DNA from: a phage
Sequence record: PV730300.1
Length of the DNA stretch: 64,000 nucleotides
Strand: one strand, 5' to 3'
Each line of letters begins with the position of its first letter. The stretch's first letter is position 1. Below, piece by piece: positions 3,748 through 58,023 of this stretch. Both the position numbers and the translations under genes were made by a program. The notes under the pieces are model-generated. The model was not told the DNA's origin, did not search any database, and saw only the letters and a list, made by a program, of their open reading frames with translations.

Positions 3748-5234
3748 TGGACGAATATGGTTTGACAGATGCGGGATTTGTAATCCCGACTTTTGACGAT
3801 GTTTTAAACAACTACATGACAGCAGTAAAAAACACATTTGGTGCAGATGCAGCCACTTCGGAAGATACTGTGATCGGACAACTGTTTAGAATAATTGCAT
3901 ACACAGATTACACATTGTGGGAAGGTATGCAAGGTGTTTATAATACTCAAACACTGGATGGTGCAGAAGGTATTTATCTTGATGAAATCTTTTCTAAACG
4001 CGGTTTCTATCGAGCAGGTGCAGCAGCAAGTACAGGTTATGCATATGTTAAGAGTAATAACAAAGCAGCTTGGACTTATGAGCTAGGCACGGATATTTAC
4101 TTCAACTCTGATAGTGATATGAACTACTATGTTAGCACACCAACCATGTTGAATGCTAAGATTGCAGCTTATCAAATCTCTCGTGCTAATGCAACTGCTA
4201 CAGGTGTTCCAAATATTACTTTTTATGCACAAAGTGCGGTCGATGGAGGACTAAACAGCAAAACACTTGCACCTGGTTCTTCTACATTTATAACCGATCT
4301 TGAAACTTTTATCAAGGCAAATTTAACAGAAGCTGATCGTAGTCTTGTATTTTCTGATTCAGGTAACTTATCAATTGGTTTTACTTCTTTAACCAGTGAT
4401 ACTCCAGTGGGGCTGGTAACTCCTATTAAATTTTATGCTAGTGTTCCGGTTGGAACCAAGTGGAGTGAGATTCCGGTAGTTGCAGCAGAGAAAGGATACA
4501 ATCCTGTTGGTGTGGAGTCTATTACAGGGATATCTTCTACCTTTACAGGTTATCTTGACAGTGGTAACTTCTATTCATTTTCTCCTGGTCGAGATGTTGA
4601 GACAGACGCAGAATTCCGCTCTCGTTTCAATGACAACGTTGATGAAGCTAACGCAGGGACACGAGCAGCTATTGTGAAAGCTCTGTTGCTTACAGATGGT
4701 GTTACTAAGGTGAAGATTTATGATAACCCTACGTTACATGATCAAGAACACGCTCCAGCTATGACTTTCCAGACTATAGTTTATGGTGGCAGTGCAGAAG
4801 AAATTGCAAATGTTATCTATAAAACCAAACCAATCAACACTTTGACACACGGAACAACTAACATAACAGTTACAACAGAAGATGGAGGACAAGAAATTAT
4901 TCGCTTCTCCCCTGGTGCTTCTGCTACGTATTCTGTAAAACTTGTTTATCAAACTGTCAACGGAACAACTTTAAGTGGAACAGAAAAACAAAACATCGTA
5001 GAAGCTTTACAAAACCTGCAAGCTTACTTTGAGTTAGGTTCTTCAGTAACGAACGATCAAATCAAAGGTGTTATTTATGCAGCACTTGCTTTTGGACGCT
5101 TGACTTCTCTTCGTGTTTATGTTAAACTTAATACTGAGGATGACAGTAAATATACAGAGAATAATATAGTTCCTGCTTATAATGTTGTCCCTTCTTTTGA
5201 CCTTGATAACATTTCTTACGAGTATGGAGTGTAA
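3747..5234 (+). CDS. baseplate J-like protein (495 aa)
   Basis: N-terminal segment resembles baseplate-J family N-termini; followed by the small protein / fiber / fiber-assembly gene order seen in P2-like tail modules. Confidence 0.5.
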   Translation: MDEYGLTDAGFVIPTFDDVLNNYMTAVKNTFGADAATSEDTVIGQLFRIIAYTDYTLWEGMQGVYNTQTLDGAEGIYLDEIFSKRGFYRAGAAASTGYAYVKSNNKAAWTYELGTDIYFNSDSDMNYYVSTPTMLNAKIAAYQISRANATATGVPNITFYAQSAVDGGLNSKTLAPGSSTFITDLETFIKANLTEADRSLVFSDSGNLSIGFTSLTSDTPVGLVTPIKFYASVPVGTKWSEIPVVAAEKGYNPVGVESITGISSTFTGYLDSGNFYSFSPGRDVETDAEFRSRFNDNVDEANAGTRAAIVKALLLTDGVTKVKIYDNPTLHDQEHAPAMTFQTIVYGGSAEEIANVIYKTKPINTLTHGTTNITVTTEDGGQEIIRFSPGASATYSVKLVYQTVNGTTLSGTEKQNIVEALQNLQAYFELGSSVTNDQIKGVIYAALAFGRLTSLRVYVKLNTEDDSKYTENNIVPAYNVVPSFDLDNISYEYGV

Positions 5235-5236
5235 AA

Positions 5237-5866
5237 ATGGCAGTGAGTGTTGACCATGTAACAACTTGGGCCAGTATCAACGAAGATGTTAAAAACCTTC
5301 TGATTGAAGATTTTAAATCTTCTCCTAACATTGTCAAGCTCCTCTACATCGTATCCAGTGAAAAGCAAAAGATAGATCAGGCAATGATCTATCTTGCTAA
5401 ACACCGCTTGATCTCTACAGCCACAGGCAAATACCTAGATATTCTAGGGGAAGAAATGGGGATCGAACGTAATGGCTCTGATGATGAAGAGTATAGAACA
5501 ATATTAAAAATCAGGGCTTACCGCGTAGCCTCATCGGGGACTCGTGGTGACATAATTGATATCTTCGCCCGTTTCACAGGAACAGAGCGTGAAACGCTTA
5601 ATACTTACGTAGGTTTGAATAAAACCTTTGATGTGTTTTTCTACAACCTGTGTCTTCAATCTGATCAAGCTTTAGAGCAGTTGCTAAGTGTTTTCCCTAT
5701 TATTAGTAGCTACCGTCTTGGAGCAAAAGCAGGATCAGCTTTTGGTTTTAGTTCTTATTATGCTACCAAACCGCCTCATGGTATTGGTGGTTTAGGTTCC
5801 CTGTACATGGAATCTACTGGGGATGAAACAGGACGCATGTGTACGCTTCTCAAGCAAATAGATTAA
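5237..5866 (+). CDS. tail/baseplate protein (209 aa), gpI-like position
   Basis: Position between J-like protein and tail fiber; GGAGTG RBS; function from context only. Confidence 0.4.
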   Translation: MAVSVDHVTTWASINEDVKNLLIEDFKSSPNIVKLLYIVSSEKQKIDQAMIYLAKHRLISTATGKYLDILGEEMGIERNGSDDEEYRTILKIRAYRVASSGTRGDIIDIFARFTGTERETLNTYVGLNKTFDVFFYNLCLQSDQALEQLLSVFPIISSYRLGAKAGSAFGFSSYYATKPPHGIGGLGSLYMESTGDETGRMCTLLKQID

Positions 5867-5875
5867 GGAGTTTAA

Positions 5876-6937
5876 ATGGCGAAGCCAATATATTATCCTG
5901 ACTGGGCTACACAAACTGTAACGCTCCCAGGAACTTTAAACACAAACAAAATTAGACCTAAAGAAACCATCCGCACAGTTGGTATGGATTATGGTCAAAT
6001 CATGACTTGCGAAGAAATGAACTGGATTCTTAATAATATCGGTTTATGGATTCGCTATTTGGTGGATGACTTTCTTCCAACTTTACCTAATACCTACTTG
6101 CCTTTAGTGGGAACTAAGATTACAATGGCAGGTGATGCTACTGGTGAGGCTACTTGGAACGGTAACAAAGAAGTTACTTTATCTATCCAAGTTCAAGATA
6201 ACAGTCATAATCACTTGTCGGCAAACATTACAGATGCCACTAGTTCAACAGTAACACCAAACGTGTTGGTAAAACGTGATGCGGGTGGTGCTATTTATGG
6301 TGGCGATGTTTATGTTAACGGTACTTCCACAACAGATCCTGCAACACTGTTCTTCAAAAACTTCGCAGGACAAACAAATGGTGAGATTTCTGCCGAGTAT
6401 CAAAGCGGAGGTCAGCTTTACATCTATCGTAGAAATCCTAGCACAGGTAATGTATCGGCAGGTGTTCGTTTATATGATGCAGGTTATGTTCTAATAGACA
6501 GTCCAAGATCAAACAGTGGGCAAGATACTTCTAACGGAAACGCTTTAGTTCGCTTAGATTATCTGAATTCTCGTTTGACTTCTCTTCAGAACACATTGCA
6601 GACGAATATTAACACTGTTCAAAACAACCTGAATAGTGTTAACAACAACCTCTCTTCTCGTATAAACAATGTAGAAAGTAATCATCAAAGTCAGATTACA
6701 AATAACTACAACTATGCTAACGGAACCTTTGTAAGAGATATTCGTTATACTAGCCAAGGTGTGTATTATCCCCCAGGGAACGAGGTTTCTTGGACTTATA
6801 TCTGTTCTTCTGGTTATGTTCTTTCTGGTATTATCGTACAGGAAACAGGACGTAGCTCTGCGGATAACATCGGTGGGGTTTACTTCAAACGCCTCCAGCG
6901 CAACGTTAACGGAAACTGGTACGATATTGGAGGCTAA
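5876..6937 (+). CDS. tail fiber protein (353 aa)
   Basis: Central N/Q/S/T-rich heptad-like segment (LQNTLQTNINTVQNNLNSVNNNL) typical of fiber shafts; immediately followed by a fiber-assembly chaperone gene. Confidence 0.6.
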   Translation: MAKPIYYPDWATQTVTLPGTLNTNKIRPKETIRTVGMDYGQIMTCEEMNWILNNIGLWIRYLVDDFLPTLPNTYLPLVGTKITMAGDATGEATWNGNKEVTLSIQVQDNSHNHLSANITDATSSTVTPNVLVKRDAGGAIYGGDVYVNGTSTTDPATLFFKNFAGQTNGEISAEYQSGGQLYIYRRNPSTGNVSAGVRLYDAGYVLIDSPRSNSGQDTSNGNALVRLDYLNSRLTSLQNTLQTNINTVQNNLNSVNNNLSSRINNVESNHQSQITNNYNYANGTFVRDIRYTSQGVYYPPGNEVSWTYICSSGYVLSGIIVQETGRSSADNIGGVYFKRLQRNVNGNWYDIGG

Positions 6938-7483
6938 ATGATATTTACAAACTTTAAAAAATATATTCCTGAAGACCCTGAACTAAAAGAATTGGTAGAA
7001 GCAGAGAACATTCTTTTTCTTCGTTGCGATCAAGGTTACGATTGGTATGATTTACGTAGCACAGAGTTCAATAACGATAAAATGAAAGTCGTTTTTGATG
7101 ATCAAAATCGTATTGTGTTTTGGAATACTGATCCTACACTACTTTGCCCTGAAGATCTTTCTATAGCACAAGTAGACTTTAATATAGATACTTTTGAGGA
7201 TATTAGGAACAAGGTTCTGGATTTAGAAACCTTAACTCTTAAGGATAAAGAGTATTCCCGTGAAGAGTTGATGACACAAGCTAGTGCAAAAATTCGCTCT
7301 TTACAAGAAACAGCGGTAGCACTTATAACACCTTTACAGTATGCTAAAGATTTAGAAATGGCTACTGAAGACGAATTAGCTTATCTTAAAAATCTTCAAG
7401 TTTATGTAGTTAAACTAAATCGTGTTCCGCTTCAAAAAGACTATCCTTACGCTATAGATTGGCCTACATTACCGACAGAATAA
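6938..7483 (+). CDS. tail fiber assembly chaperone (181 aa)
   Basis: C-terminal pattern ending KDYPYAIDWPTLP resembles Tfa-family C-termini; located directly after the fiber gene. Confidence 0.6.
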   Translation: MIFTNFKKYIPEDPELKELVEAENILFLRCDQGYDWYDLRSTEFNNDKMKVVFDDQNRIVFWNTDPTLLCPEDLSIAQVDFNIDTFEDIRNKVLDLETLTLKDKEYSREELMTQASAKIRSLQETAVALITPLQYAKDLEMATEDELAYLKNLQVYVVKLNRVPLQKDYPYAIDWPTLPTE

Positions 7484-7492
7484 GGGATCACT

Positions 7493-7828
7493 ATGGAATT
7501 TCAAGAAGCATGGGGACTTGCAAAGGATGCAATAATCCCTTTAATCGGAGTCATCTGGTTCTTTTTCAAACAAAAAATGGATAAATTCGGCTCTGATCTT
7601 GAGGAAATGGAGGAGAAAAGTCGAGAGCTAGAGAAGAAGTTGGTCTTTGTTGAATCAACTTATGCAACTAAAGCCGAACTTACCCAGATGCTAAATCAAA
7701 TTAACTCTACATTAATGGCAAATAATAACACCCTTGAGCAAAAAATTGAAAAGATTATGGACCTCAAGAATGCGACTATCCAAATGATGCTAGATGACAT
7801 AGTTAAACGTACACAGAATAAGGGGTAA
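7493..7828 (+). CDS. membrane-anchored coiled-coil protein (111 aa)
   Basis: One N-terminal hydrophobic helix (IIPLIGVIWFFF) then charged heptad-like region. Confidence 0.4.
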   Translation: MEFQEAWGLAKDAIIPLIGVIWFFFKQKMDKFGSDLEEMEEKSRELEKKLVFVESTYATKAELTQMLNQINSTLMANNNTLEQKIEKIMDLKNATIQMMLDDIVKRTQNKG

Positions 7829-7831
7829 TTA

Positions 7832-10800
7832 ATGGCAACATTCCCAACATATCCAGCAACGTCTCTCGAACAGGGCGTAGACCTGGTTATTTTCTCATCT
7901 AACCAACTCCATGATGTTATTAATGGAAGTGCTACAGAGAGTATTGAAACAGAATCAGGGTTGATACCAACCCTGAGAAAAGCCCTTGTTGACAACTTTT
8001 TCTTTAAAAGCCCATTGGATTGGGCGCAAGGCACAAACGAAACAGTTTTTAACCAACTTCGTTATTTCCAGAATGGAGTATTGAGCGGTTATTACTATGC
8101 CCCTAACGCTACATTGGTTAACCCAATCCCTATGCAAGGGACTCCAGTAGGAGATAACAACTGGGTATTGTGGGGACTGAAAACAGAACAACTAGCAACA
8201 GAAGTCACCCCGTGGGTATACTCTGGTGCAACGGGTTATGAAACAGTAATTAGTCCTCCTTACATCTTTGATAGTGCTATTGTTACGATCAATGGTGTTA
8301 TTCAGGTTCTGGGGGAAGCTTTCCGTATAGAAGATAGTAAGATCATCTTATCTGAACCTTTGGGACACGATCCTGCAACAGGACTGCCAAACAAGCTTTT
8401 TGCTTATATTGGTAAAATCGTAGCTTCAGCAGATACAGATCCTAACCTAGAGAATCGTCTTGTTAGTTTAGAAACAAAAACGGAAGAACTAACAGAAAGC
8501 ATGGATAAAGTCCCTCTGCAAACTATTGCTCGTAAATATGGTTTGTTAGATGATGAGGTGGCTTACGCAACAGCAGGTCAATCGTTAACAGGGATTAAAG
8601 CTCTGTATGATCCAGTAGCACAGTCTTCCTACACATTACCTCCTAACATCACAGGAACTTTAACATCCTTATCTGTTTCTGGAGTAATGACTTATTCTGG
8701 TGGGTCTGTAGATCTTTCTGCACTAGCTGTTGAACGTGGACAGTTTGTTCATTTGCCTACAAGCTTTGGTAATAACGTAACTCTGACAGCTAAAAATCAG
8801 ACGATTGGACGTGGTGCTGGTCGTTATCGTTGGGCTGGAAGTTTACCAAAAAGTATTTTGGCCTCCGATACATTGGAGACAAGCGGTGGATTAGGTCCAA
8901 ATGCATGGGTTCTGACCAATACAGAAGGACTGTTAACCCCTCGTGGTGGAACATACAACGACTTATTCGATGTTGTCTACTTGTCAGAATTTGCTAACAA
9001 CACAACAGCATATACCACACCAGAAGCAGCTTTCCAAGCAGCACTGTTAGCAGCAAAAGCTTCTAAAAGCAAGATTCTCGATGCTTACGGTTGTGATATG
9101 ACTTTCACGACAAGCTCTTTTGATATTCAAGGTATCACTTTGCGTGGGGGTGTGTTCCGTGGTCAACGCGACTATCGTGTGCAAAATGCTACAGTAGAAG
9201 GCACAACTTTCCGTAACTCTCGTGTTATGTATTGGGGTGGTGCTGTGCGCATGTTCGATTGTTTGTGGGACGGTGCTCCTCGCGCAGGTCAAGTTGGTAG
9301 CTTGGTATTCCAAGGCAACCCAATATCAGGTACTTTTGAAATTGATAACTGTACTTTTAAAAACGGGTTGTATGGCATCCTTCAACAAGGAACAGGGGAA
9401 CCAGTAACACGTGGTGTCTTCCGTAACCTTACCTTCATGGACATGCAAGGTGATGCAATAGAACTGAACGTCATCAATAAACATTATGACGATGGTTGTG
9501 TGATTGAGAATATTTACCTGTCTAATATCGATGGGACTAACGCTCCTATTCCTCTGTCCAACTGGGGTATCGGTATCGGTGTAGCTGGTAAAGGACCATA
9601 TGGTTACGGAATCCCTGATGATCAATATTGCAAGAATATTACAATTCGTAACGTTTTTGCAAAACGTTGTCGTCAGATTGTCCACGTAGAAGTTGGTCGT
9701 AATATCTCTATCGAAAACATTCATGGCGATCCAGACCAGACCGTATCTGTTGGGACAGGTTTGGCAACTGGCGCAGTTGTAATGTATGGAAGTAAAGATT
9801 TTACGATTGACGGTGTTTACGGAGAGCCTAAAACAGACGGTAGCACACTTGCAAGTAATATCCGTATGATTTATTTGGAGTGGGGAACTAACGCAGTTCT
9901 GGATGAAGAGGGTAATCCGGTAGTTCCGGCACAGGGCAGACCTTCAAATCCATGCTTTAACTATTCTGTTCGTAACATTCACACCAAAACTGGGCGTGTT
10001 TTTGCGGGAGTTTCCGCTGGACCAGGTTATGAAAACAGAGTTAGCTTTGAAAATATTCGTTGCGCTGCATTGCAGTTGTTCGGTATAGCTTCTTGGCTTT
10101 CAATGTCTAACATCACCTGTAATATCTTCGATTGTGTTGGTCAACCTGAATCTGGTCCAGGGACATTTTATGATGGATTCTTCCGTAGAGAAAAATCTGT
10201 TCTTGAAATGGTTAACGTAAACTGTTACCCAGATGGCAAGACGATGGTTACTGGTCGTCCACAGTGGAGCCGTTGCCGTTACTCTGATATTCATCGTGTC
10301 AACTGTAATGTTGAAGCTAATATGTATACCAATATCGCAGGTGGTATTGGAGCTATTGTAGGGACAACGGGCAAAGTTTATTACTTAGAGCCTAATCCTA
10401 GTCGAAACATTGATGGAATGCATTTCCCAACAGGGAAAGAGTTTGACAAAGGTGATATGATAGTCAAGGCGGATAATACGTTCTTCCTTGTAACAACAAG
10501 TGGGGCATATATTCCAGATATCCCAGCTTTCGGTATTCGAGCTACACAGGCAGGAGATACCTTCCTAACACAGAACTTGACTCCTAACGGGACAGCAACA
10601 AATGCTTCTTGGTTGTATCATTACCCTCTGTCAGCAGGGACACGTATCCGTATTCCTGGTGCTGGCGTAGGTGGAGCAGATTTGGACACAGTTATTACTC
10701 GTGCACCTTATCAAGATAATGATACGTGGACTAACCCAGTTAAAATAGACATTGCAGATCCAATTGTAACGCCTACAAGTGCTGGAGTTAGAATTAAAAC

Positions 10801-10946: not shown

Positions 10947-12971
10947 ATGAATTTAACAAGACCTAATAGTGCGATAGCCGATCTGGTAGAAGCTACTTAT
11001 CGAAAACGTCGCAGCTTTGAGGCAGGTTTTACATTACGTAATTCCCGTGAAGTTTTGCTGTTAGCAGCAGAAGGGAATTATTACCAATGGAAAGGAACTT
11101 TTCCTAAAGTAGTTCCAGCAAACTCTACGCCAGCCACCACAGGTGGTATTTCTTCCCTTGCATGGCAAAGTGTTGGGACCGCTGATGATATAGCAATTAT
11201 CAATGCCAAGTTTACGGCAATGCAGCAACAGATTGATGATCTGTCGGAAACAATACCTGAAGCTGGTAAATCGGCTTATCAGATCGCACTTGATAATGGT
11301 TTTGTTGGAACAGAAGCACAATGGCTTGCTTCTTTGAAAGGGGATACTGGTGCTCAACTTAATATTAAAGGATCATTAGCAAGCACTAGTGAGCTACCAT
11401 CTACAGGTAACGTTGCAGGGGACGGTTATATCGTAGGCGATGTAATCTATGCTTGGGATGGTTCTGTTTGGAAGCTTATTTCTTCTCTTGGACCAGAAGG
11501 GAAATCAGCTTATGAGGTATGGTTGGCAGATGGTAATACAGGATCTGTTTATGATTTTCTTACCTCTATAAAAGGTGATAAAGGTGATGTTGGTCCTACA
11601 GGGCCACAGGGAGCACCTGGTGTTAACGCCAACGGTTTTGATTATCGTGGAGATTTGCCTTCTACAAGTAACTTACCACAACCTAACTCTGAAAACGTAA
11701 GCCAAGCTTATTCTATCAATGGTAATCTTTATGTCTCTAATGGGACAGCTTGGGTCAACATGGGTAATATTGTTGGTCCTCAAGGTCCACAAGGTGAGGC
11801 AGGTAAAGACGGTCTTGATGGAACAGATGGAGATGAAGGGAAATCTGCATATCAAAGTTGGCTGGATGCTGGTAATGAAGGGACAGAAGTAGATTTTATT
11901 GCCTCACTTAAAGGTCCAAAAGGAGACAAGGGTGATCAAGGAGAGCGAGGTCCACAAGGTGAACTAGGTCCACAAGGACCAGTGGGTGCAACAGGATCAG
12001 GCTTAGAGATTATCGGGGTTCTGAACAGTGAAGCTGAACTTCCTCCTACTGGAGAAGTAGGTGATGCATATAAAATTAATAATGATTTGTATGTTTGGAT
12101 TCAAGATGCTACGGAATGGATGAATGTTGGCAGTCTTGGAGGAACATCAATTACAGCTAAAGGTCATGTTCCGAACAGTGAAGCTCTCCCTGTTTATAAT
12201 AACTATGGTGATGCCTATTTAACTGAAGACACTAGTAATCTTTACATCTATACCTACGATCAAGACACCAATTCCGCATCTTTTGTTGACATGGGAAGTA
12301 TTAAAGGCGACAAAGGTGAAAAAGGGGATAAAGGAGATAAGGGTGATCCTGGAACAAACGGAACCAACGGTACTAATGGGACCAACGGTAAAGACGGCGC
12401 ACAGTGGTTTGTAGCAACAACTAATCCAGTCGCAGGTGATGGTGTTATCAATGATTACGCTTTCAACACTACCACTGGAGCAGTGTTTAAGAAAACAGAT
12501 TCTTCTACGTGGACACTTATAGGAACTCTTCCTAGTATACCAGAAGCACCTCAAGACGGCTTGACGTATGGTCGTTCTGATGGGAACTGGATCGAAATAT
12601 CAGGATCAGATCCTACAGAAGCTATAACACCAACTAAAGTTACAGCAGGTTTCATGGAACTTGAAACAACTACTGCCAACTCTGGAGCATCTTGGACTCC
12701 TTCTGGAACTTCCAATATGTATGTTGTTACAGTAACTGACGCTCTGACAGTTGGAGCATGGCCTGGTGTCACTGGCTCTACAAAGCCTAAAGCGTTTTCA
12801 GCAATGATTTATTTGATTCAAGATACAACGGGACACACGGTTACACTAGATGCGTCTTATGGAGCACTGAATGATACAGAAATAGCAACTACTGCTAACG
12901 CAGTAACAATTTTGCAATTAACGTATCCTGGTGTGGGTAATGTCGTGGACATGGTTGTTGTAACACGATAA
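10947..12971 (+). CDS. collagen-like repeat tail fiber protein (674 aa)
   Basis: Several Gly-X-Y blocks (GDKGDVGPTGPQGAPG; GPQGPQGEAGKDGLDGTDGDEG; GPKGDKGDQGERGPQGELGPQGPVGATG; GDKGEKGDKGDKGDPGTNGTNGTNGTNGKDG). Confidence 0.7.
   Translation: MNLTRPNSAIADLVEATYRKRRSFEAGFTLRNSREVLLLAAEGNYYQWKGTFPKVVPANSTPATTGGISSLAWQSVGTADDIAIINAKFTAMQQQIDDLSETIPEAGKSAYQIALDNGFVGTEAQWLASLKGDTGAQLNIKGSLASTSELPSTGNVAGDGYIVGDVIYAWDGSVWKLISSLGPEGKSAYEVWLADGNTGSVYDFLTSIKGDKGDVGPTGPQGAPGVNANGFDYRGDLPSTSNLPQPNSENVSQAYSINGNLYVSNGTAWVNMGNIVGPQGPQGEAGKDGLDGTDGDEGKSAYQSWLDAGNEGTEVDFIASLKGPKGDKGDQGERGPQGELGPQGPVGATGSGLEIIGVLNSEAELPPTGEVGDAYKINNDLYVWIQDATEWMNVGSLGGTSITAKGHVPNSEALPVYNNYGDAYLTEDTSNLYIYTYDQDTNSASFVDMGSIKGDKGEKGDKGDKGDPGTNGTNGTNGTNGKDGAQWFVATTNPVAGDGVINDYAFNTTTGAVFKKTDSSTWTLIGTLPSIPEAPQDGLTYGRSDGNWIEISGSDPTEAITPTKVTAGFMELETTTANSGASWTPSGTSNMYVVTVTDALTVGAWPGVTGSTKPKAFSAMIYLIQDTTGHTVTLDASYGALNDTEIATTANAVTILQLTYPGVGNVVDMVVVTR
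12304..12398 (+). repeat. tandem triplet-codon repeats (GXY block) inside the collagen-like fiber gene
   Basis: aaaggngan-type 9-nt units followed by four ggaaccaacgg-like units. Confidence 0.6.
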
Positions 12972-54015: not shown

Positions 54016-55023
54016 TTGTTAGATATGCCAGTAAAGAAGAGTATTGAAACATATATGGAAGAATGTAAGCCGATAGCTGAGGCTAAAGGGATTACCATTC
54101 TCGGCACGTATGGAGAAGATAAAGGTGTGCATACGAAGATGATCAATCGTTGTGAGCATGGTCATGAATGGAATACTACAACGTTTCACAGTTTTAAAGA
54201 TGGTCGAGGTTGTCCTAAGTGCGCCTACAGAGAACGTTCGAAAAAGAGAAGCAAAGCTATCACTATTCCAGACCAGCAACACATACAAGATTTTATGAAG
54301 GTAGGTAAATTTAAGGAAGGCACTATTTTCACCAATACAGGGGAACGTAAAGGGTGTGATATAGTATGGATGGTTGAATGTCCTGTTTGCTCTCATGATG
54401 AATATGTGGAAGCTGGGGTGTGTGATGGTAAATTCTATGCTACCGGAAGTCATCTTAAACGTGGGTGTCTCCCTTGCCGCTGTTCTACGAGTTACAAATA
54501 CACAGAGGATCAGACCACCTATAGAACAAGAAAGGAAGTAGAAAGGAGAGGATATATATGGGTAGGATGGATCGGTAAACCTTCAACAATGGGTAAGTTT
54601 AAATATGGATGTAAGGAGCACGGGGAACAGATAGGGCGTGCAGATGGTTTGCTACATAAGGGGAGTGGGTGTCCGCAGTGCGGGGGCCAAAACCAACAAC
54701 AATGTTACATTAATCATATTTATGATGAAGATGGTATTCTTTGTGCACTGAAGTTTGGTATTGCCAATAGTAGTGATCGCCGTATCAAAGAACAGAATAG
54801 CCGCAATGTGTTTACTATGAGACAAGTTCAAGTGTGGCAGTTCCCCACTGTGAAGCAGTGCAAAAATTCAGAAAAGTATTGCAAAAAGGTGTTAGACACA
54901 GAAGCAGTGAGCAAATATGCTATGCCAGACGGCTACACAGAAACAGTGGAGCTATCTTGTTTGGCCTCAATACAAAACATTTATAAACTTTATGGTGGAA
55001 CATTACAGGAGGAAACATGTTAG
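54016..55023 (+). CDS. cysteine-rich multi-zinc-finger protein (335 aa)
   Basis: Several CxxC pairs (GCPKCAY, CPVCSHDE, CLPCRC, GCPQCGG, CKEHG). Confidence 0.45.
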   Translation: MLDMPVKKSIETYMEECKPIAEAKGITILGTYGEDKGVHTKMINRCEHGHEWNTTTFHSFKDGRGCPKCAYRERSKKRSKAITIPDQQHIQDFMKVGKFKEGTIFTNTGERKGCDIVWMVECPVCSHDEYVEAGVCDGKFYATGSHLKRGCLPCRCSTSYKYTEDQTTYRTRKEVERRGYIWVGWIGKPSTMGKFKYGCKEHGEQIGRADGLLHKGSGCPQCGGQNQQQCYINHIYDEDGILCALKFGIANSSDRRIKEQNSRNVFTMRQVQVWQFPTVKQCKNSEKYCKKVLDTEAVSKYAMPDGYTETVELSCLASIQNIYKLYGGTLQEETC

Positions 55024-55382
55024 TTGACGTTCAAATTATGCGCAACGAAAGAATGGACTTCTTTGAAGCAGTAGAGAAACATCTGATCAGATGGGACTAT
55101 GAATTTGTTCCTGCTGGATGTGGACCAGTAGAGCATTTAGCGGAAGACGACGATGTATACATGATCATTCGTCAAGTGTACCAGACAGACCAGTGTGAAG
55201 AAACTCCCGAACTGATTTTGTTTGAGTGTAAAGATCTTGCAAAATATTTTGACTATGGCGGAAAAGAGGGTCATAATCTCTCCAGATACAATAAACGTCT
55301 ACTTATCTTAGACTACATGCGGAACAACAAACACAAACTCATCGACGCAGACGCAGTTTATGGCTACTGGTGGATGGACTAA
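55017..55382 (+). CDS. hypothetical protein (121 aa)
   Basis: ORF coupled to upstream gene. Confidence 0.45.
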   Translation: MLVDVQIMRNERMDFFEAVEKHLIRWDYEFVPAGCGPVEHLAEDDDVYMIIRQVYQTDQCEETPELILFECKDLAKYFDYGGKEGHNLSRYNKRLLILDYMRNNKHKLIDADAVYGYWWMD

Positions 55383-55395
55383 CAAAGGAGAAACT

Positions 55396-55584
55396 ATGGC
55401 ACGTTTAGCAGATAACCCTGTATTCTACCCCGTTCTTGATCTTTATGATGAATTGACATATGTTGTGGAGCGGTATAACTACAATGAAGATCTTTTGGAG
55501 ACAAACCTTAAAGTGGTCCTGATGAAAGCCTATCAGAAAGGGCAACGTGAAATTTTGGAGAGTATGAAAAATGCGAATAACTGA
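55396..55584 (+). CDS. hypothetical protein (62 aa, start at internal ATG)
   Basis: AAGGAGAAA RBS before ATG at 55396. Confidence 0.4.
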   Translation: MARLADNPVFYPVLDLYDELTYVVERYNYNEDLLETNLKVVLMKAYQKGQREILESMKNANN

Positions 55585-56113
55585 TGATTATGTATTCTTC
55601 TTTTCACATAAAGATGTGTTTAGTAATTGGTATATTGCACCCTTTACAGAAACCGAACCAGGTTACAATCAAACATTTAATTGTGTCGAACAATATATGA
55701 TGTGGCGTAAAGCTTTGCTTTTTAATGACCACAACACTGCACAGGCTATTCTGACTCATAGCTTGATACGGAAAGATGAGAAGATCCAAGCTTATTACAA
55801 ACGTATGGGTAGGGCAGTGTCGGATTTTGATAACAACGTATGGGAAGAGAACCGTGAGCGTATTGTTATGCGAGGTTTATGCTTGAAATATGTACAGAAT
55901 CCAGATTTGTATGCAGACTTACACCTTTACCAATATAAAACGTTTGTTGAAGCAAGCCCCTACGATAAGGTTTACGGAATTGGAATGGGGATGTATGAAC
56001 CAGGGGTGCTAAACCCTGCCACCTGGAAAGGGCAGAATCTTTTAGGCAAATATCATAATAAACTGATCGAAATACTTTTCCCAGACAAAATACCGCAAAG
56101 ACGATATTTGTGA
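55571..56113 (+). CDS. NADAR (YbiA-like) domain protein (180 aa)
   Basis: FFFSHKDVFSNWY, CVEQYMMWRKA, NVWEE and FVEASPYDKVYGIGMG match the conserved NADAR blocks. Confidence 0.6.
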   Translation: MRITDDYVFFFSHKDVFSNWYIAPFTETEPGYNQTFNCVEQYMMWRKALLFNDHNTAQAILTHSLIRKDEKIQAYYKRMGRAVSDFDNNVWEENRERIVMRGLCLKYVQNPDLYADLHLYQYKTFVEASPYDKVYGIGMGMYEPGVLNPATWKGQNLLGKYHNKLIEILFPDKIPQRRYL

Positions 56114-56167
56114 TATTTTAACTTTTTTCATTTTTAGAACAAAGGTGTCACTTTGTAGCACAGAAAT

Positions 56168-56207
56168 AAGGCTCCTACAGCACCGTAGAGAGCCTGTTAT
56201 TTTGTCT
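56168..56207 (+). terminator. rho-independent terminator closing the plus-strand block
   Basis: AGGCTC...GAGCCT extended hairpin with internal CTAC/GTAG pairing, followed by GTTATTTTGTCTT. Confidence 0.5.
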
Positions 56208-56355
56208 TATACAAACACTTATCTTTTTCAGTTTGCATCACTAGAATTAGATCTAGGTGGGTTCCTGAAGGTTTACCAATAAGATTAAAGGTTATCTCAA
56301 ATTACCACTACCTGTTATCTCAAAAAATCCCTCAAATTATTTAAACTTTTTAAGA

Positions 56356-56543
56356 ATTTACAAAAGTGAAAGTTGAAAACCAAAATTTAAAGTTTAGGAA
56401 AATTATCTTAAAATGTCAGATACAAAACAAAACTCAAAAGTCAAGGAAAATTTTAAAAATTTTGCGCGCCCACAGTATTTAAAGTTTTTTTGCTTTTACA
56501 AAAATGAAAGTACAAAAGCAAAATTTAAAGTTTACAAAAATTT
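56356..56543. repeat. two copies of a ~45-bp AT-rich direct repeat (about 56356-56405 and 56493-56543)
   Basis: acaaaagtgaaagttgaaaaccaaaatttaaagtttaggaaaatta vs acaaaaatgaaagtacaaaagcaaaatttaaagtttacaaaaattta. Confidence 0.6.
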
Positions 56544-56554
56544 ATGCAGATGGG

Positions 56555-56664
56555 AATGAGAAGAGTTCTCATATGGAAATGCAAATGATAATGATTCGCA
56601 TTTAGGTTTATAAATGAGATTGATTCTTATTTGATAAGGTAAATGATAAGCATTCTCATTTAGA
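56555..56664. repeat. four iteron-like imperfect palindromes, about 27-bp periodicity
   Basis: gaatgagaagagttctcatatgg / aaatgataatgattcgcatttagg / aaatgagattgattcttatttga / aaatgataagcattctcatttaga. Confidence 0.6.
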
Positions 56665-56895
56665 GAATGACGCGCAGGGGTGGTGTTTGTCTCGCGCTCC
56701 CGTGTCCCCTCGCCATGTAATAAGAATAACAGATCCAGCCAGGAAAGCAAGCGATTATTTTTATCTTTACATTTCTTTACAAATATATAGCGCCCAGCCT
56801 CCCGGCGATCGACCTTCCAACCGGTGCCCCTGGTATGTTAGCCCCGCCTTTACGCCGTGGGGGTGGCGCTTCCTCTTCTGTATGTAAAACAGTAT

Positions 56896-56935
56896 AAGCC
56901 CGATCCCTGGGCTTGTCAAGATTATTTTTTGTTTT
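56896..56935. terminator. bidirectional hairpin terminator in GC-rich block
   Basis: AAGCCC-gatccctg-GGGCTT hairpin; T-run downstream on plus strand, TGTTTT downstream on minus strand after the stop of 56922-57188. Confidence 0.4.
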
Positions 56936-57188
56936 CTTGCCAGGATAAGACACCTAACCAAAAATGCATATCGCCCCGCGCCCCTGGTGGGATCTTGCTT
57001 TCCCCGCCGCCACTGCAAGCCCATAAATAACCATCAGCGAACGGATCAAAGTTTTCTATCTCTTCCACCTTATGATCGCCCAGGTTGAGAACGGTTTCAA
57101 CCTTTAAGCCCGTTGCGCTTGCTACCTGGTGCACCGTGCCGCCTTGCCAGCCCAATGAGTGCATAAGGTGTAATGTAGTATTTGTCAT
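56922..57188 (-). CDS. small hypothetical protein (88 aa), divergent from the early array
   Basis: Coherent GC-rich codon usage; upstream TTGCTG-17-TATCAT, then GCGCC...GGCGC hairpin and AAAGGG RBS, a diverged version of the early cassette. Confidence 0.4.
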   Translation of the reverse strand: MTNTTLHLMHSLGWQGGTVHQVASATGLKVETVLNLGDHKVEEIENFDPFADGYLWACSGGGESKIPPGARGDMHFWLGVLSWQENKK

Positions 57189-57296
57189 GGTATCGCCCTT
57201 TCTTTGTTGTGCGCCCTGGTTGGCGCGGTAGAAAGATGATAGCCGTTTCCTTTATATACAGCAAGCAAAAAAGAAAATAAAAAAGATTAAAAAATG

Positions 57297-57325
57297 GTTG
57301 ACGTTCCCCAGGGGGTAGCGTATTA
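57297..57325 (+). promoter_or_regulatory. sigma70-like promoter with about 135-nt leader for first early-array gene
   Basis: TTGACG, 17-nt spacer containing CCCCAGGGGG, TATTAT. Confidence 0.4.
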
Positions 57326-57461
57326 TTCATCTTGTCGAGGGGGGCGAGGCACAACGACAATAAACAAAAGGCGGGCGCGATGCAGGACGGGCAAAGGTGA
57401 GGATCTCCATAATCCACCGTCCACCAACAAAAAACATCATTCATAACCTGGAATTAAGATC

Positions 57462-57659
57462 ATGGCAACATTGCACATAGTAGCGAAAGCAGGACAAATC
57501 AGCGTAATTGTAAACGGTTTTACTGAATTCAGTCATCCCCAGGATGATCATGAAACGGTTTTATCTTTTATTGATTCCTTGTTAGAAATGGGAGTCATTA
57601 CAGAAGATCAGCACGCTACAAAATGCAAGCGCGTTAATCAAATTGCAGAAATAGAATAA
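57462..57659 (+). CDS. early small protein (65 aa)
   Basis: ORF ends 6 nt before the next cassette -35. Confidence 0.5.
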   Translation: MATLHIVAKAGQISVIVNGFTEFSHPQDDHETVLSFIDSLLEMGVITEDQHATKCKRVNQIAEIE

Positions 57660-57665
57660 AAAGTA

Positions 57666-57746
57666 TTGACAACGTTTTTTAATCTGATAAGATGTATCAC
57701 ATAGGGCGGGAAATGGTTTCCCGCCCACAATAGAAGAGAAATCATC
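57666..57746 (+). promoter_or_regulatory. early promoter-hairpin-RBS cassette 1
   Basis: TTGACA-16-TAAGAT, GTATCACAT, GGGCGGGAAA-tgg-TTTCCCGCCC hairpin, AGAAGAGAAATC, ATG. Confidence 0.65.
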
Positions 57747-57899
57747 ATGGCATCATATAGCGCAACAATGATCGTAGCTGGCATCACTGGTAAACCTATG
57801 AGCGGTGGCGGATCTTTCGCTAATATCAATATCGACGGACGTTTATCCCTGGACGCAGCGATCGCCATTGCACGGGATACATTCAAAAAAAGAATGTAA
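57747..57899 (+). CDS. early small protein (50 aa as written; probably continues to 58020 in the +1 frame)
   Basis: ATG defined by cassette 1; ends just after an A7 run (57885-57891); +1 frame stays open to 58020, immediately before the next cassette. Confidence 0.45.
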   Translation: MASYSATMIVAGITGKPMSGGGSFANINIDGRLSLDAAIAIARDTFKKRM

Positions 57900-58023
57900 A
57901 TTCAACAAACAAAATTATCTCGGTTTTGCTATTGAAAAAACCGCGCGTTTTGTGGATTATAAAAGCCCGAAAATGGTTGATACTACACTAAAAGCGCAAG
58001 ATGTAGCGTTTTTGCTTTAAGGC

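Follow-up and report, generated by a model that had tools for sequence, protein, structure and literature searches.

The DNA analysed here, hereafter called the window, is a stretch of 64,000 nucleotides (sequence record PV730300.1) from a phAPEC8-like myovirus (Phapecoctavirus, Stephanstirmvirinae); megablast of positions 55000-58000 gave 98.6% identity with EF1-1 and 94% with phAPEC8. Within it, a gene-free gap of about 800 bp lies between a terminated plus-strand operon on the left and an early-gene cluster on the right. The gap is occupied by repeats, among which are four imperfect palindromes that, in sequence terms, are boxes of the highest class for the host protein Fur. They stand next to a highly conserved block that is likely to encode an RNA on the minus strand. 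The palindromes are the following:

56555-56573, unstranded: Fur box 1, AATGAGAAGAGTTCTCATA, 14.2 bits, rank 5 in the window
56578-56602, unstranded: Fur box 2, a double site, with AATGATAATGATTCGCATT at 56584 (23.8 bits, rank 1) and a partner at 56578 (13.6 bits, rank 6)
56613-56631, unstranded: Fur box 3, AATGAGATTGATTCTTATT, 19.3 bits, rank 2
56642-56671, unstranded: proximal Fur box 4, AATGATAAGCATTCTCATT, with the conserved junction TAGAGAATGAC, 19.2 bits, rank 3

Four evenly spaced palindromes had been pointed out in the original prediction, and their period was found to be exactly 29 bp (starts at 56555, 56584, 56613 and 56642; common form AATGAkAAnnnTTCnCATT). The site at 56578 is a fifth one, overlapping palindrome 2 with a shift of 6 bp, and the junction TAGAGAATGAC adds a further in-phase GAGAAT hexamer to box 4.

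A mismatch count against the 19-mer GATAATGATAATCATTATC failed to discriminate in such AT-rich DNA (59 hits in the window at 13/19 or more), and a matrix was therefore used in its place. It was obtained with a palindromic Gibbs sampler from 13 Fur-repressed promoter regions of E. coli K-12 (fepA-fes, fepD-entS, fepB-entC, ryhB, fhuA, fur, fiu, cirA, exbB, tonB, fecI, fhuF and fhuE), without any phage input, and yielded AATGATAATCATTATCATT. Genuine host Fur sites gave leave-one-out scores of 7.3 to 21.5 bits, compared to 14.2 to 23.8 bits for the window boxes, which score equal to or above bona fide E. coli Fur sites. Not one of 3000 dinucleotide-preserving shuffles of the gap produced a site of at least 19 bits, where three were observed, and sites of at least 14 bits arose at a mean of 0.006 per shuffle, where four were observed; chance is thereby excluded. 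The other 63.8 kb of the window hold a single site of at least 14 bits, and none of at least 19.

For the reciprocal test, 46 phage 19-mers (AATG-N11-CATT) were the sole source of a matrix that was applied to 53.5 kb of E. coli DNA. Its 11 best hits all fell within Fur promoter regions, which represent 5.4% of this DNA, and all 13 Fur promoters were reached within the top 17 hits; the one hit scored as “outside” falls a short way upstream of fecA.

Overlapping partners shifted by 6 bp are the classic geometry of Fur clusters (Chen et al. 2007, PMC2189734), and pairs like that at 56578/56584 were also seen in T5, HildyBeyeler, EmilieFrey and BIS47. The E. coli Fur operators at ryhB, fepA-fes, fhuF and iucA share with the window the 19-bp motif, the register AATGAtAATnATTaTCATT, the GAGAA/TTCTC variants and the 6-bp-shifted partners. 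They differ from it in holding 0 to 2 separate sites, whereas the window has four non-overlapping sites with a 29-bp period, placed on a virulent phage genome, with no clear promoter overlap and no adjacent iron-related gene. We conclude that the palindromes are, judged by their sequence, Fur boxes of the highest class, and it is very probable that Fur as such binds the array.

Alternatively, the palindromes may be operators of a phage-encoded protein, and merely look like Fur boxes. Their regular 29-bp spacing would suit such operators, as would a slight preference for TGAGAA...TTCTCA half-sites over the TGATAA...TTATCA of the host, but genuine host sites (ryhB, fhuA, exbB, fecI and fhuE) often carry GAGAA/TTCTC variants, and the phage-derived matrix recovers the host Fur promoters. 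Moreover, the sites occur in Demerecviridae, Stephanstirmvirinae, Vequintavirinae and Alcyoneusvirus, which have no obvious regulator in common, and tblastn detected no phage-encoded Fur homologue in these families. Since this class of site is common to unrelated families, the parsimonious binder is a shared host protein, and a dedicated phage regulator seems very unlikely. The earlier description of iterated protein-binding-site-like repeats in AT-rich non-coding DNA at a transcription boundary holds, except that the palindromes are best taken as host Fur sites and not as phage-specific iterons.

Next, conservation of the array was analysed. Blastn with the gap alone showed that the array, together with about 220 bp beyond it, is conserved in Justusliebigvirus and in Vequintavirinae (Seunavirus, Certrevirus and Mydovirus), as well as in Klebsiella, Cronobacter, Enterobacter, Erwinia and Pectobacterium phages, and that the array alone matches T5-like siphoviruses. 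The left part of the gap (56114-56450) is confined to Phapecoctavirus. No blastn match to the array and block was found in 5,426 E. coli genomes or 72,556 plasmids.

Every syntenic locus examined (Phapecoctavirus, Justusliebigvirus, Seunavirus, Certrevirus, Mydovirus and the Pectobacterium phage POP18) carries 1 to 7 Fur-class sites of 15 to 26 bits, among which spacings of 29 bp or 23+6 bp recur. A box of at least 18 bits borders the same junction to the conserved block, CATTTGnAGAATGAC, in each of the 24 distinct relatives, and in 22 of the 24 distinct loci the last box is 189-198 bp away from the invariant motif of the block. The two exceptions have, respectively, a longer 3′ domain (locus L028) and a 730-bp insertion with an HNH endonuclease (locus L035). 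Lineages with one box (SPLA5a, L025 and L028) have retained exactly the proximal one. Phage sites reach on average 21.4 of a possible 26.1 bits, with up to 7 sites, compared to 0 to 2 separate sites (mean 1.0) in host operators scored in the same way. The identity of the boxes, their conservation and their positional coupling to the block were thus established in silico.

Outside the syntenic loci, near-perfect boxes were sought in IMG/VR by exact pattern, and at least 120 loci (L043-L162) were obtained; clusters of 3 to 7 separate strong sites were present in 27 of them. The contigs concerned differ widely in size and composition, and include RaK2 and a very AT-rich 62-kb contig, where seven sites share a 1.2-kb non-coding region. 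From these counts, single boxes are common, and arrays recur among phages and may be widespread. One such cluster lies at positions 2542-2751 of L060. In Muenster (L163, MT708547.1), a RaK2-like jumbo phage, a Fur-class array of 5 sites was found; its distance to the physical left end is less than 1 kb, and it is contained in a terminal repeat of 20 kb determined by PhageTerm. More boxes flank the first early promoter of this phage, TTGCAA-17-TATAAT (1218-1247), the Fur-class sites as a whole being at 780-905, 1073-1094 and 1300-1320. The leader is likewise full of CAGTACTGA repeats.

The block to which the proximal box is coupled comprises the following features:

56664-56885, minus strand: highly conserved non-coding block, putative RNA of about 220 nt (alignments)
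56671-56717, minus strand: GC-rich 3′ hairpin of the block, clade-specific (alignments)
56765-56784, minus strand: tandem CTTTACA motif of the block, a UGUAAAG pair in the putative RNA (alignments)
56818-56837, minus strand: conserved hairpin (ACC...GGU) of the block, kept in 9/9 sequence variants
56837-56858, minus strand: invariant run GTTAGCCCCGCCTTTACGCCGT of the block (alignments)
56891-56919, minus strand: sigma-70-type promoter TTGACA-17-TATACT (11/12) pointing into the block, position and 17-bp spacing conserved

Conservation of the block is far above intergenic expectation, and a run of 45 nt is almost invariant between subfamilies. In the hairpin at 56818-56837 the loop varies in length and compensatory GC/AU changes are present; G-U pairs in the block favour the minus strand. 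The minus-strand promoter is present in every lineage, across two subfamilies, with diverged hexamers and spacer: at the same place and with the same 17-bp spacing, SPLA5a has TTGAAA / TATAGT, CR8 and POP18 have TTGACG / CATAAT, and BIS47 has TTGCAA / TATATT, all on the minus strand. The transcript implied by this arrangement would start near 56884, run through the invariant 5′ domain, the UGUAAAG pair and the 3′ hairpin, and end against the proximal Fur box. We infer from these features that an RNA exists, and the block is likely to be a minus-strand RNA of about 220 nt, unannotated so far, which may correspond to a promoter-bearing RNA of the 3′ untranslated region type, belonging to the small upstream open reading frame (ORF).

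Two minus-strand ORFs overlapping the block (56767-57024 and 56777-56953) were considered and rejected: the most conserved part contains indels of 1 nt and of 4-5 nt, so that the block is not coding. Part of it may be a DNA site, as the tandem CTTTACA-N3/4-CTTTACAAA, which is invariant in the block, is also found after the Fur array of the unrelated Muenster (L163, 1036-1056). The hairpin of the 3′ domain did not discriminate between the strands. A permissive search of Rfam 15 (E up to 5) gave nothing in the gap, the sole hit being a chance-level c4-a1b1 at 55998-56042, and no publication describing an RNA of rV5/phAPEC8-like phages came up.

In L035 (6313-7040; IMG/VR 2974574029), the 730-bp insertion carries a gene for an HNH-type homing endonuclease (197 aa) and splits the invariant CCGGCGATCCACC. 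The gene is co-oriented with the putative RNA and has its own Shine-Dalgarno sequence, and a partial target duplication is present (GCCGGCGAT / CCAGCGATCC). A group I intron is unlikely here, as only about 135 nt of the 730 bp lie outside the ORF.

The array and block are framed by the following features:

55571-56113, plus strand: NADAR-domain gene, last of the plus-strand operon (Pfam, E 8e-36)
56170-56205, plus strand: intrinsic terminator, hairpin GGCTCCTACAGCACCGTAGAGAGCC then TGTTATTTTG (hairpin and T-run, -18.1 kcal/mol)
56922-57188, minus strand: small conserved ORF of 88 aa, phrog_19316, directly upstream of the conserved block

The terminator, which had been predicted to close the plus-strand block, does so, and phAPEC8 has the identical sequence, annotated there as such. 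The 88-aa ORF is annotated in EF1-1, anhysbys, phiWec181, EmilieFrey, SPLA5a and BIS47, and to its right begins a plus-strand cluster of small early genes. No function is assigned to the gap in three annotated records of relatives, among which anhysbys has a bare “repeat_region” over two palindromes. ARAGORN detected no tRNA or tmRNA. The product of the NADAR-domain gene is called GTP cyclohydrolase II or YbiA-like N-glycosidase in public records, and the gene preceding it (54016-55023, plus strand) shows CapR homology and is an “endonuclease” in some of them. Further into the early region, a 22-nt GC-rich hairpin motif, TAGGGCGGCAATGGTGCCGCTC, is found five times on the plus strand (59284, 60654, 61654, 62405 and 63853), where 0 are expected by chance. 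In phAPEC8 this motif directly follows sigma-70-like promoters (“PHIRE”, “MEME”), an arrangement like that of promoter-early stem-loops.

Taken as a whole, we propose that the locus is an array of host-Fur sites acting as an operator or a roadblock, a reading to which we give a probability of about 0.55. In an iron-replete cell, Fe2+-Fur dimers would coat some 115 bp (56555-56671) once the DNA reaches the cytoplasm. The array lies in a zone of convergent termination, with the plus-strand terminator on one side and the 3′ hairpin of the putative minus-strand RNA on the other, the proximal box being locked in position against this hairpin. With the array as an iron-dependent operator or roadblock, Fur would halt transcription across the junction. 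One way would be to strengthen the weak U-tract terminator at the end of the putative minus-strand RNA, the other to repress TTGAAT-18-CAGAAT, a weak antisense promoter on the plus strand that the box overlaps. Upon iron scarcity, control by Fur would be released. Transcription where the early region begins, and possibly the use of the AT-rich iteron block described below, would thereby be tied to the iron status of the host. Both the occupancy by Fur and the operator/roadblock action are what we infer from the layout.

Several observations weigh against this proposal. The array has no convincing promoter overlap: the candidate TTGAAT-18-CAGAAT is a weak one, and in 5 of 17 sequences its key -11A or -7T is missing. 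The strong conserved promoter, 230 bp off, is directed at the array, and its initiation therefore cannot be repressed by Fur. In T5, the corresponding array follows terminators and no annotated promoter is near. Concerning the RNA, folding stability of the block did not differ significantly from that of shuffles on either strand (z = +0.45, -1.05 and +0.67), covariation was sparse, and a naive stacked-covariation scan was uninformative. Finally, phage arrays hold more sites than host operators do, and these sites come nearer to the consensus, so that the arrays look like a sink or architectural complex more than like a tuned operator.

Repeat Region 3 of T5, a 1.2-kb non-coding segment in the left terminal repeat (LTR), at its inner end, is thought to hold the injection stop signal; its repeats have been called a “bewildering array”, their function being unexplained, and a comparative analysis gives the region DnaA boxes without any mention of Fur or LexA (Davison, bioRxiv 10.1101/866236). 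We scanned the T5 record AY587007.1 (L164, annotation of Wang et al. 2005), in which the features concerned are at 9330-9637 and 10026-10064. Three T5 palindromes, palE/DRC1 (20.9 bits), palG/DRC3 (25.3 bits) and palI/DRC4 (22.2 bits), are Fur-class boxes, each with a 6-bp-shifted partner, and box 3 of the window matches palI (AATGAGATTGATTCTCATT) at 18 of 19 positions. Another one, palD (TACTGTATAAATATACAGTA), is a perfect CTGT-N8-ACAG palindrome, that is, an SOS-box (LexA), with a second copy at 6137. The calculated shear point of first-step transfer, 9618 (Davison), falls inside palI, and the nick at 7.9% is annotated at 9661. The T5-like phages HildyBeyeler and EC122 have the same layout, and blastn of window positions 56577-56667 against T5-like phages gave 76-85% identity.

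The two regions have in common the Fur-class units (DRC1-4 and palE/palG/palI in T5), a large non-coding stretch beside early genes, and the sequence TATCTCAA, located in DRA2/3 in T5. Eight DnaA boxes in IRC/IRD, the palD SOS-box, nine DRD repeats and the nick site, all within a 10-kb terminal repeat, belong to T5 alone, and neither DnaA boxes nor DRD-type repeats were found in the window gap. Conversely, only the window has the AT-rich 72-nt repeats and the conserved GC-rich block.

In the window, the repeats on the left of the palindromes are of two kinds:

56291-56324, plus strand: two direct repeats GTTATCTCAAA, 23 bp apart (starts 56291 and 56314), the 10-mer being absent from the rest of the 64 kb
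56333-56542, plus strand: AT-rich iteron-like block (23% G+C), with two 72-nt direct repeats and a partial third copy

The former had been described as two direct repeats, correctly. Their core, TATCTCAA, is present in 1 to 3 copies at the syntenic non-coding region of phAPEC8, phiWec181, BIS47 and SPLA5a, and likewise in T5 (repeats DRA2/DRA3) and HildyBeyeler; TATCTCAA(A) lies at 1097-1213 in L022, 1668-1784 in L017, and 10040-10067 of the T5 record (L164). For the latter, an AT-rich repeat of about 45 bp, in two copies some 140 bp apart, had been announced. Two copies 138 bp apart are indeed present, and they are longer: the repeats span 72 nt (56333-56404 and 56471-56542, 82% identical), with a partial third copy at 56421-56453. 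Justusliebigvirus has three related AT-rich units of about 66 nt beside the array. Vequintavirinae instead carry three GATC-rich iterons of about 95 bp, GGTCTCGATCG...GATCGTATTCTC, with two GATC sites each (1240-1440 in L021, 1230-1420 in L022 and 1500-1690 in L028). As these take the place of the 72-nt repeats of the window, the iterons beside the Fur array are lineage-specific.

Such an arrangement bears on the suggestion, made in the original prediction, that the locus is a replication origin. The iterons and the 23% G+C block would form a region of initiator binding and unwinding, the minus-strand transcript, directed towards this region, would prime or activate it, and Fur would have an accessory or gating role. 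An origin is made possible by lineage-specific iteron-like repeats flanking the array in every lineage, GATC-rich in Vequintavirinae, together with a conserved promoter firing towards the extremely AT-rich block, and the T5 counterpart has its DnaA boxes and nine DRD iterons. Origins of the T4 oriF/oriG type consist of a promoter whose transcript leads to an AT-rich unwinding element, and the window resembles them in having a conserved promoter with a transcript directed towards an AT-rich repeat block, but differs in that the Fur array stands between the putative RNA and this block. On the other hand, the gap contains no match to the DnaA (TTWTNCACA), IHF (WATCAANNNNTTR) or SOS consensus (55900-57300 being scanned for DnaA and IHF), and no annotated initiator or helicase-loader gene is adjacent. 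The turn of GC skew, at about 50 kb, follows gene orientation and not the repeat locus. We know of no role of Fur in origins or in packaging. We consider an origin quite unlikely.

The same prediction offered a packaging site or terminal-repeat junction as another possibility. Related arrays are indeed found in terminal repeats: Fur-class boxes are located inside those of three groups, the T5 LTR, the 342-bp direct terminal repeat (DTR) of BME3 (24.0 and 18.3 bits) and the 20-kb terminal repeat of Muenster. In addition, the public records of several relatives are linearised within a few kb of the locus. BME3, whose 342-bp DTR was determined by PhageTerm, is the sole relative among Stephanstirmvirinae with such termini (PMC12210895). 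In this phage the block motif is at 11,678 and the array at 11,877-11,990, so the DTR is about 11.9 kb from the syntenic locus, which is therefore not a terminal-repeat junction in the closest testable relative. Furthermore, the points at which the records of relatives begin are spread out and mostly arbitrary. In the window the locus occurs once and lies internally, and its neighbours are ATPase, CapR-domain/endonuclease and NADAR genes and small ORFs, with no annotated terminase gene among them. A packaging function has, in our opinion, hardly any chance of being correct. The BME3 record (PP239276; L039/L040) holds three copies of the DTR, at 146957-147298 and 1-269; two of these seem to follow each other in tandem over the ends of the record, and this has the look of an assembly artefact. 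The syntenic array of BME3 is about 8% of the genome in from the DTR, and the figure for first-step transfer in T5 is 7.9%; this agreement may be a coincidence and is suggestive only.

The presence of Fur-class sites in terminal DNA raises a further explanation, in which no gene is regulated at all. Near-consensus arrays on first-entering or terminal non-coding DNA would capture abundant host proteins, and serve as a sink or an architectural complex. One purpose could be titration of Fur, with derepression of iron uptake and RyhB; others could be a nucleoprotein boundary against H-NS spreading, an anchor, or a checkpoint of DNA entry comparable to the injection stop of T5. Multiple sites for an abundant regulator, away from a promoter and acting by occupancy or competition, have analogues, though analogues only, in the Fur-site array upstream of ftnA, which activates by an anti-H-NS effect, and in the titration locus datA and the FURTA titration assay. 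Capture would account for sites stronger and more numerous than those of host operators, for the lack of a clear promoter overlap, and for the frequency of clusters of at least 3 sites among viral loci with perfect boxes (27 of at least 120). The positions of the T5 sites at the calculated shear point and the 7.9% nick, those of Muenster within 1 kb of the end, and those of BME3 inside the DTR and about 8% in, also point in this direction, as does the addition in T5 of a consensus LexA box (palD) and of DnaA boxes.

However, some lineages hold a single box, and this is always the one adjoining the conserved block, which suits an operator/roadblock better than it does a pure sink. Proteins sitting on the part of the DNA already inside the cell cannot alone stop further entry, and since T5 destroys host DNA early, derepression of host genes would be pointless there. 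A cell contains some 5,000-10,000 Fur molecules, of which four or five sites per genome would titrate only a part, unless copy number is high. We therefore regard capture without gene regulation as rather unlikely, and keep the Fur operator/roadblock as the preferred reading.

A broader view, which we put forward tentatively and hold to be doubtful, is that at least four unrelated virulent lineages share one cis-acting device: T5-like Demerecviridae, Stephanstirmvirinae, Vequintavirinae and RaK2-like jumbo phages, along with further uncultivated contigs. Arrays better than those of the host, for global regulators of the host (Fur everywhere, with LexA and DnaA added in T5), and placed in terminal or first-entering non-coding DNA, would assemble an iron-gated complex of host proteins. 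This complex might be a checkpoint of DNA entry or of transcription, or an anti-silencing boundary; the T5 stop signal would be one instance, and phAPEC8-like phages would have their checkpoint about 8% in.

Fur boxes are a textbook matter, but as single operators that control iron genes, and on phages they are, to our knowledge, described only with cargo genes of temperate ones. Temperate lambdoid coliphages have a Fur box at sitABCD (PMC6969025), and the Fur boxes of temperate phages, that of the stx1 promoter included, resemble those of the window in being host Fur sites on phage DNA. They are single operators at cargo-gene promoters, with expression from the prophage and integration in the host regulon, whereas the window has an array in a strictly virulent phage, with no iron-related gene. 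Full-text searches for Fur in connection with phage genomes, phAPEC8, T5-like phages, Tequintavirus or Vequintavirinae returned only the sitABCD box of temperate lambdoid phages. Thus, we found no prior description of regular near-consensus Fur arrays in the early or terminal non-coding DNA of unrelated virulent phages, the published analysis of the T5 region included.

If Fur does bind these arrays, lytic phages would read or exploit the iron status of the host from the first minutes of infection, and this would have a bearing on phage therapy in iron-limited host niches. The palindromes palE, palG and palI of T5, and palD as a LexA site, would gain a concrete protein partner, and the 50-year-old question of the T5 injection stop, undefined since 1968, would become testable with fur, lexA and dnaA host mutants. 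In phAPEC8-like phages and their relatives, the unannotated block of about 220 nt, coupled to the proximal box, would be a candidate for a new phage RNA.

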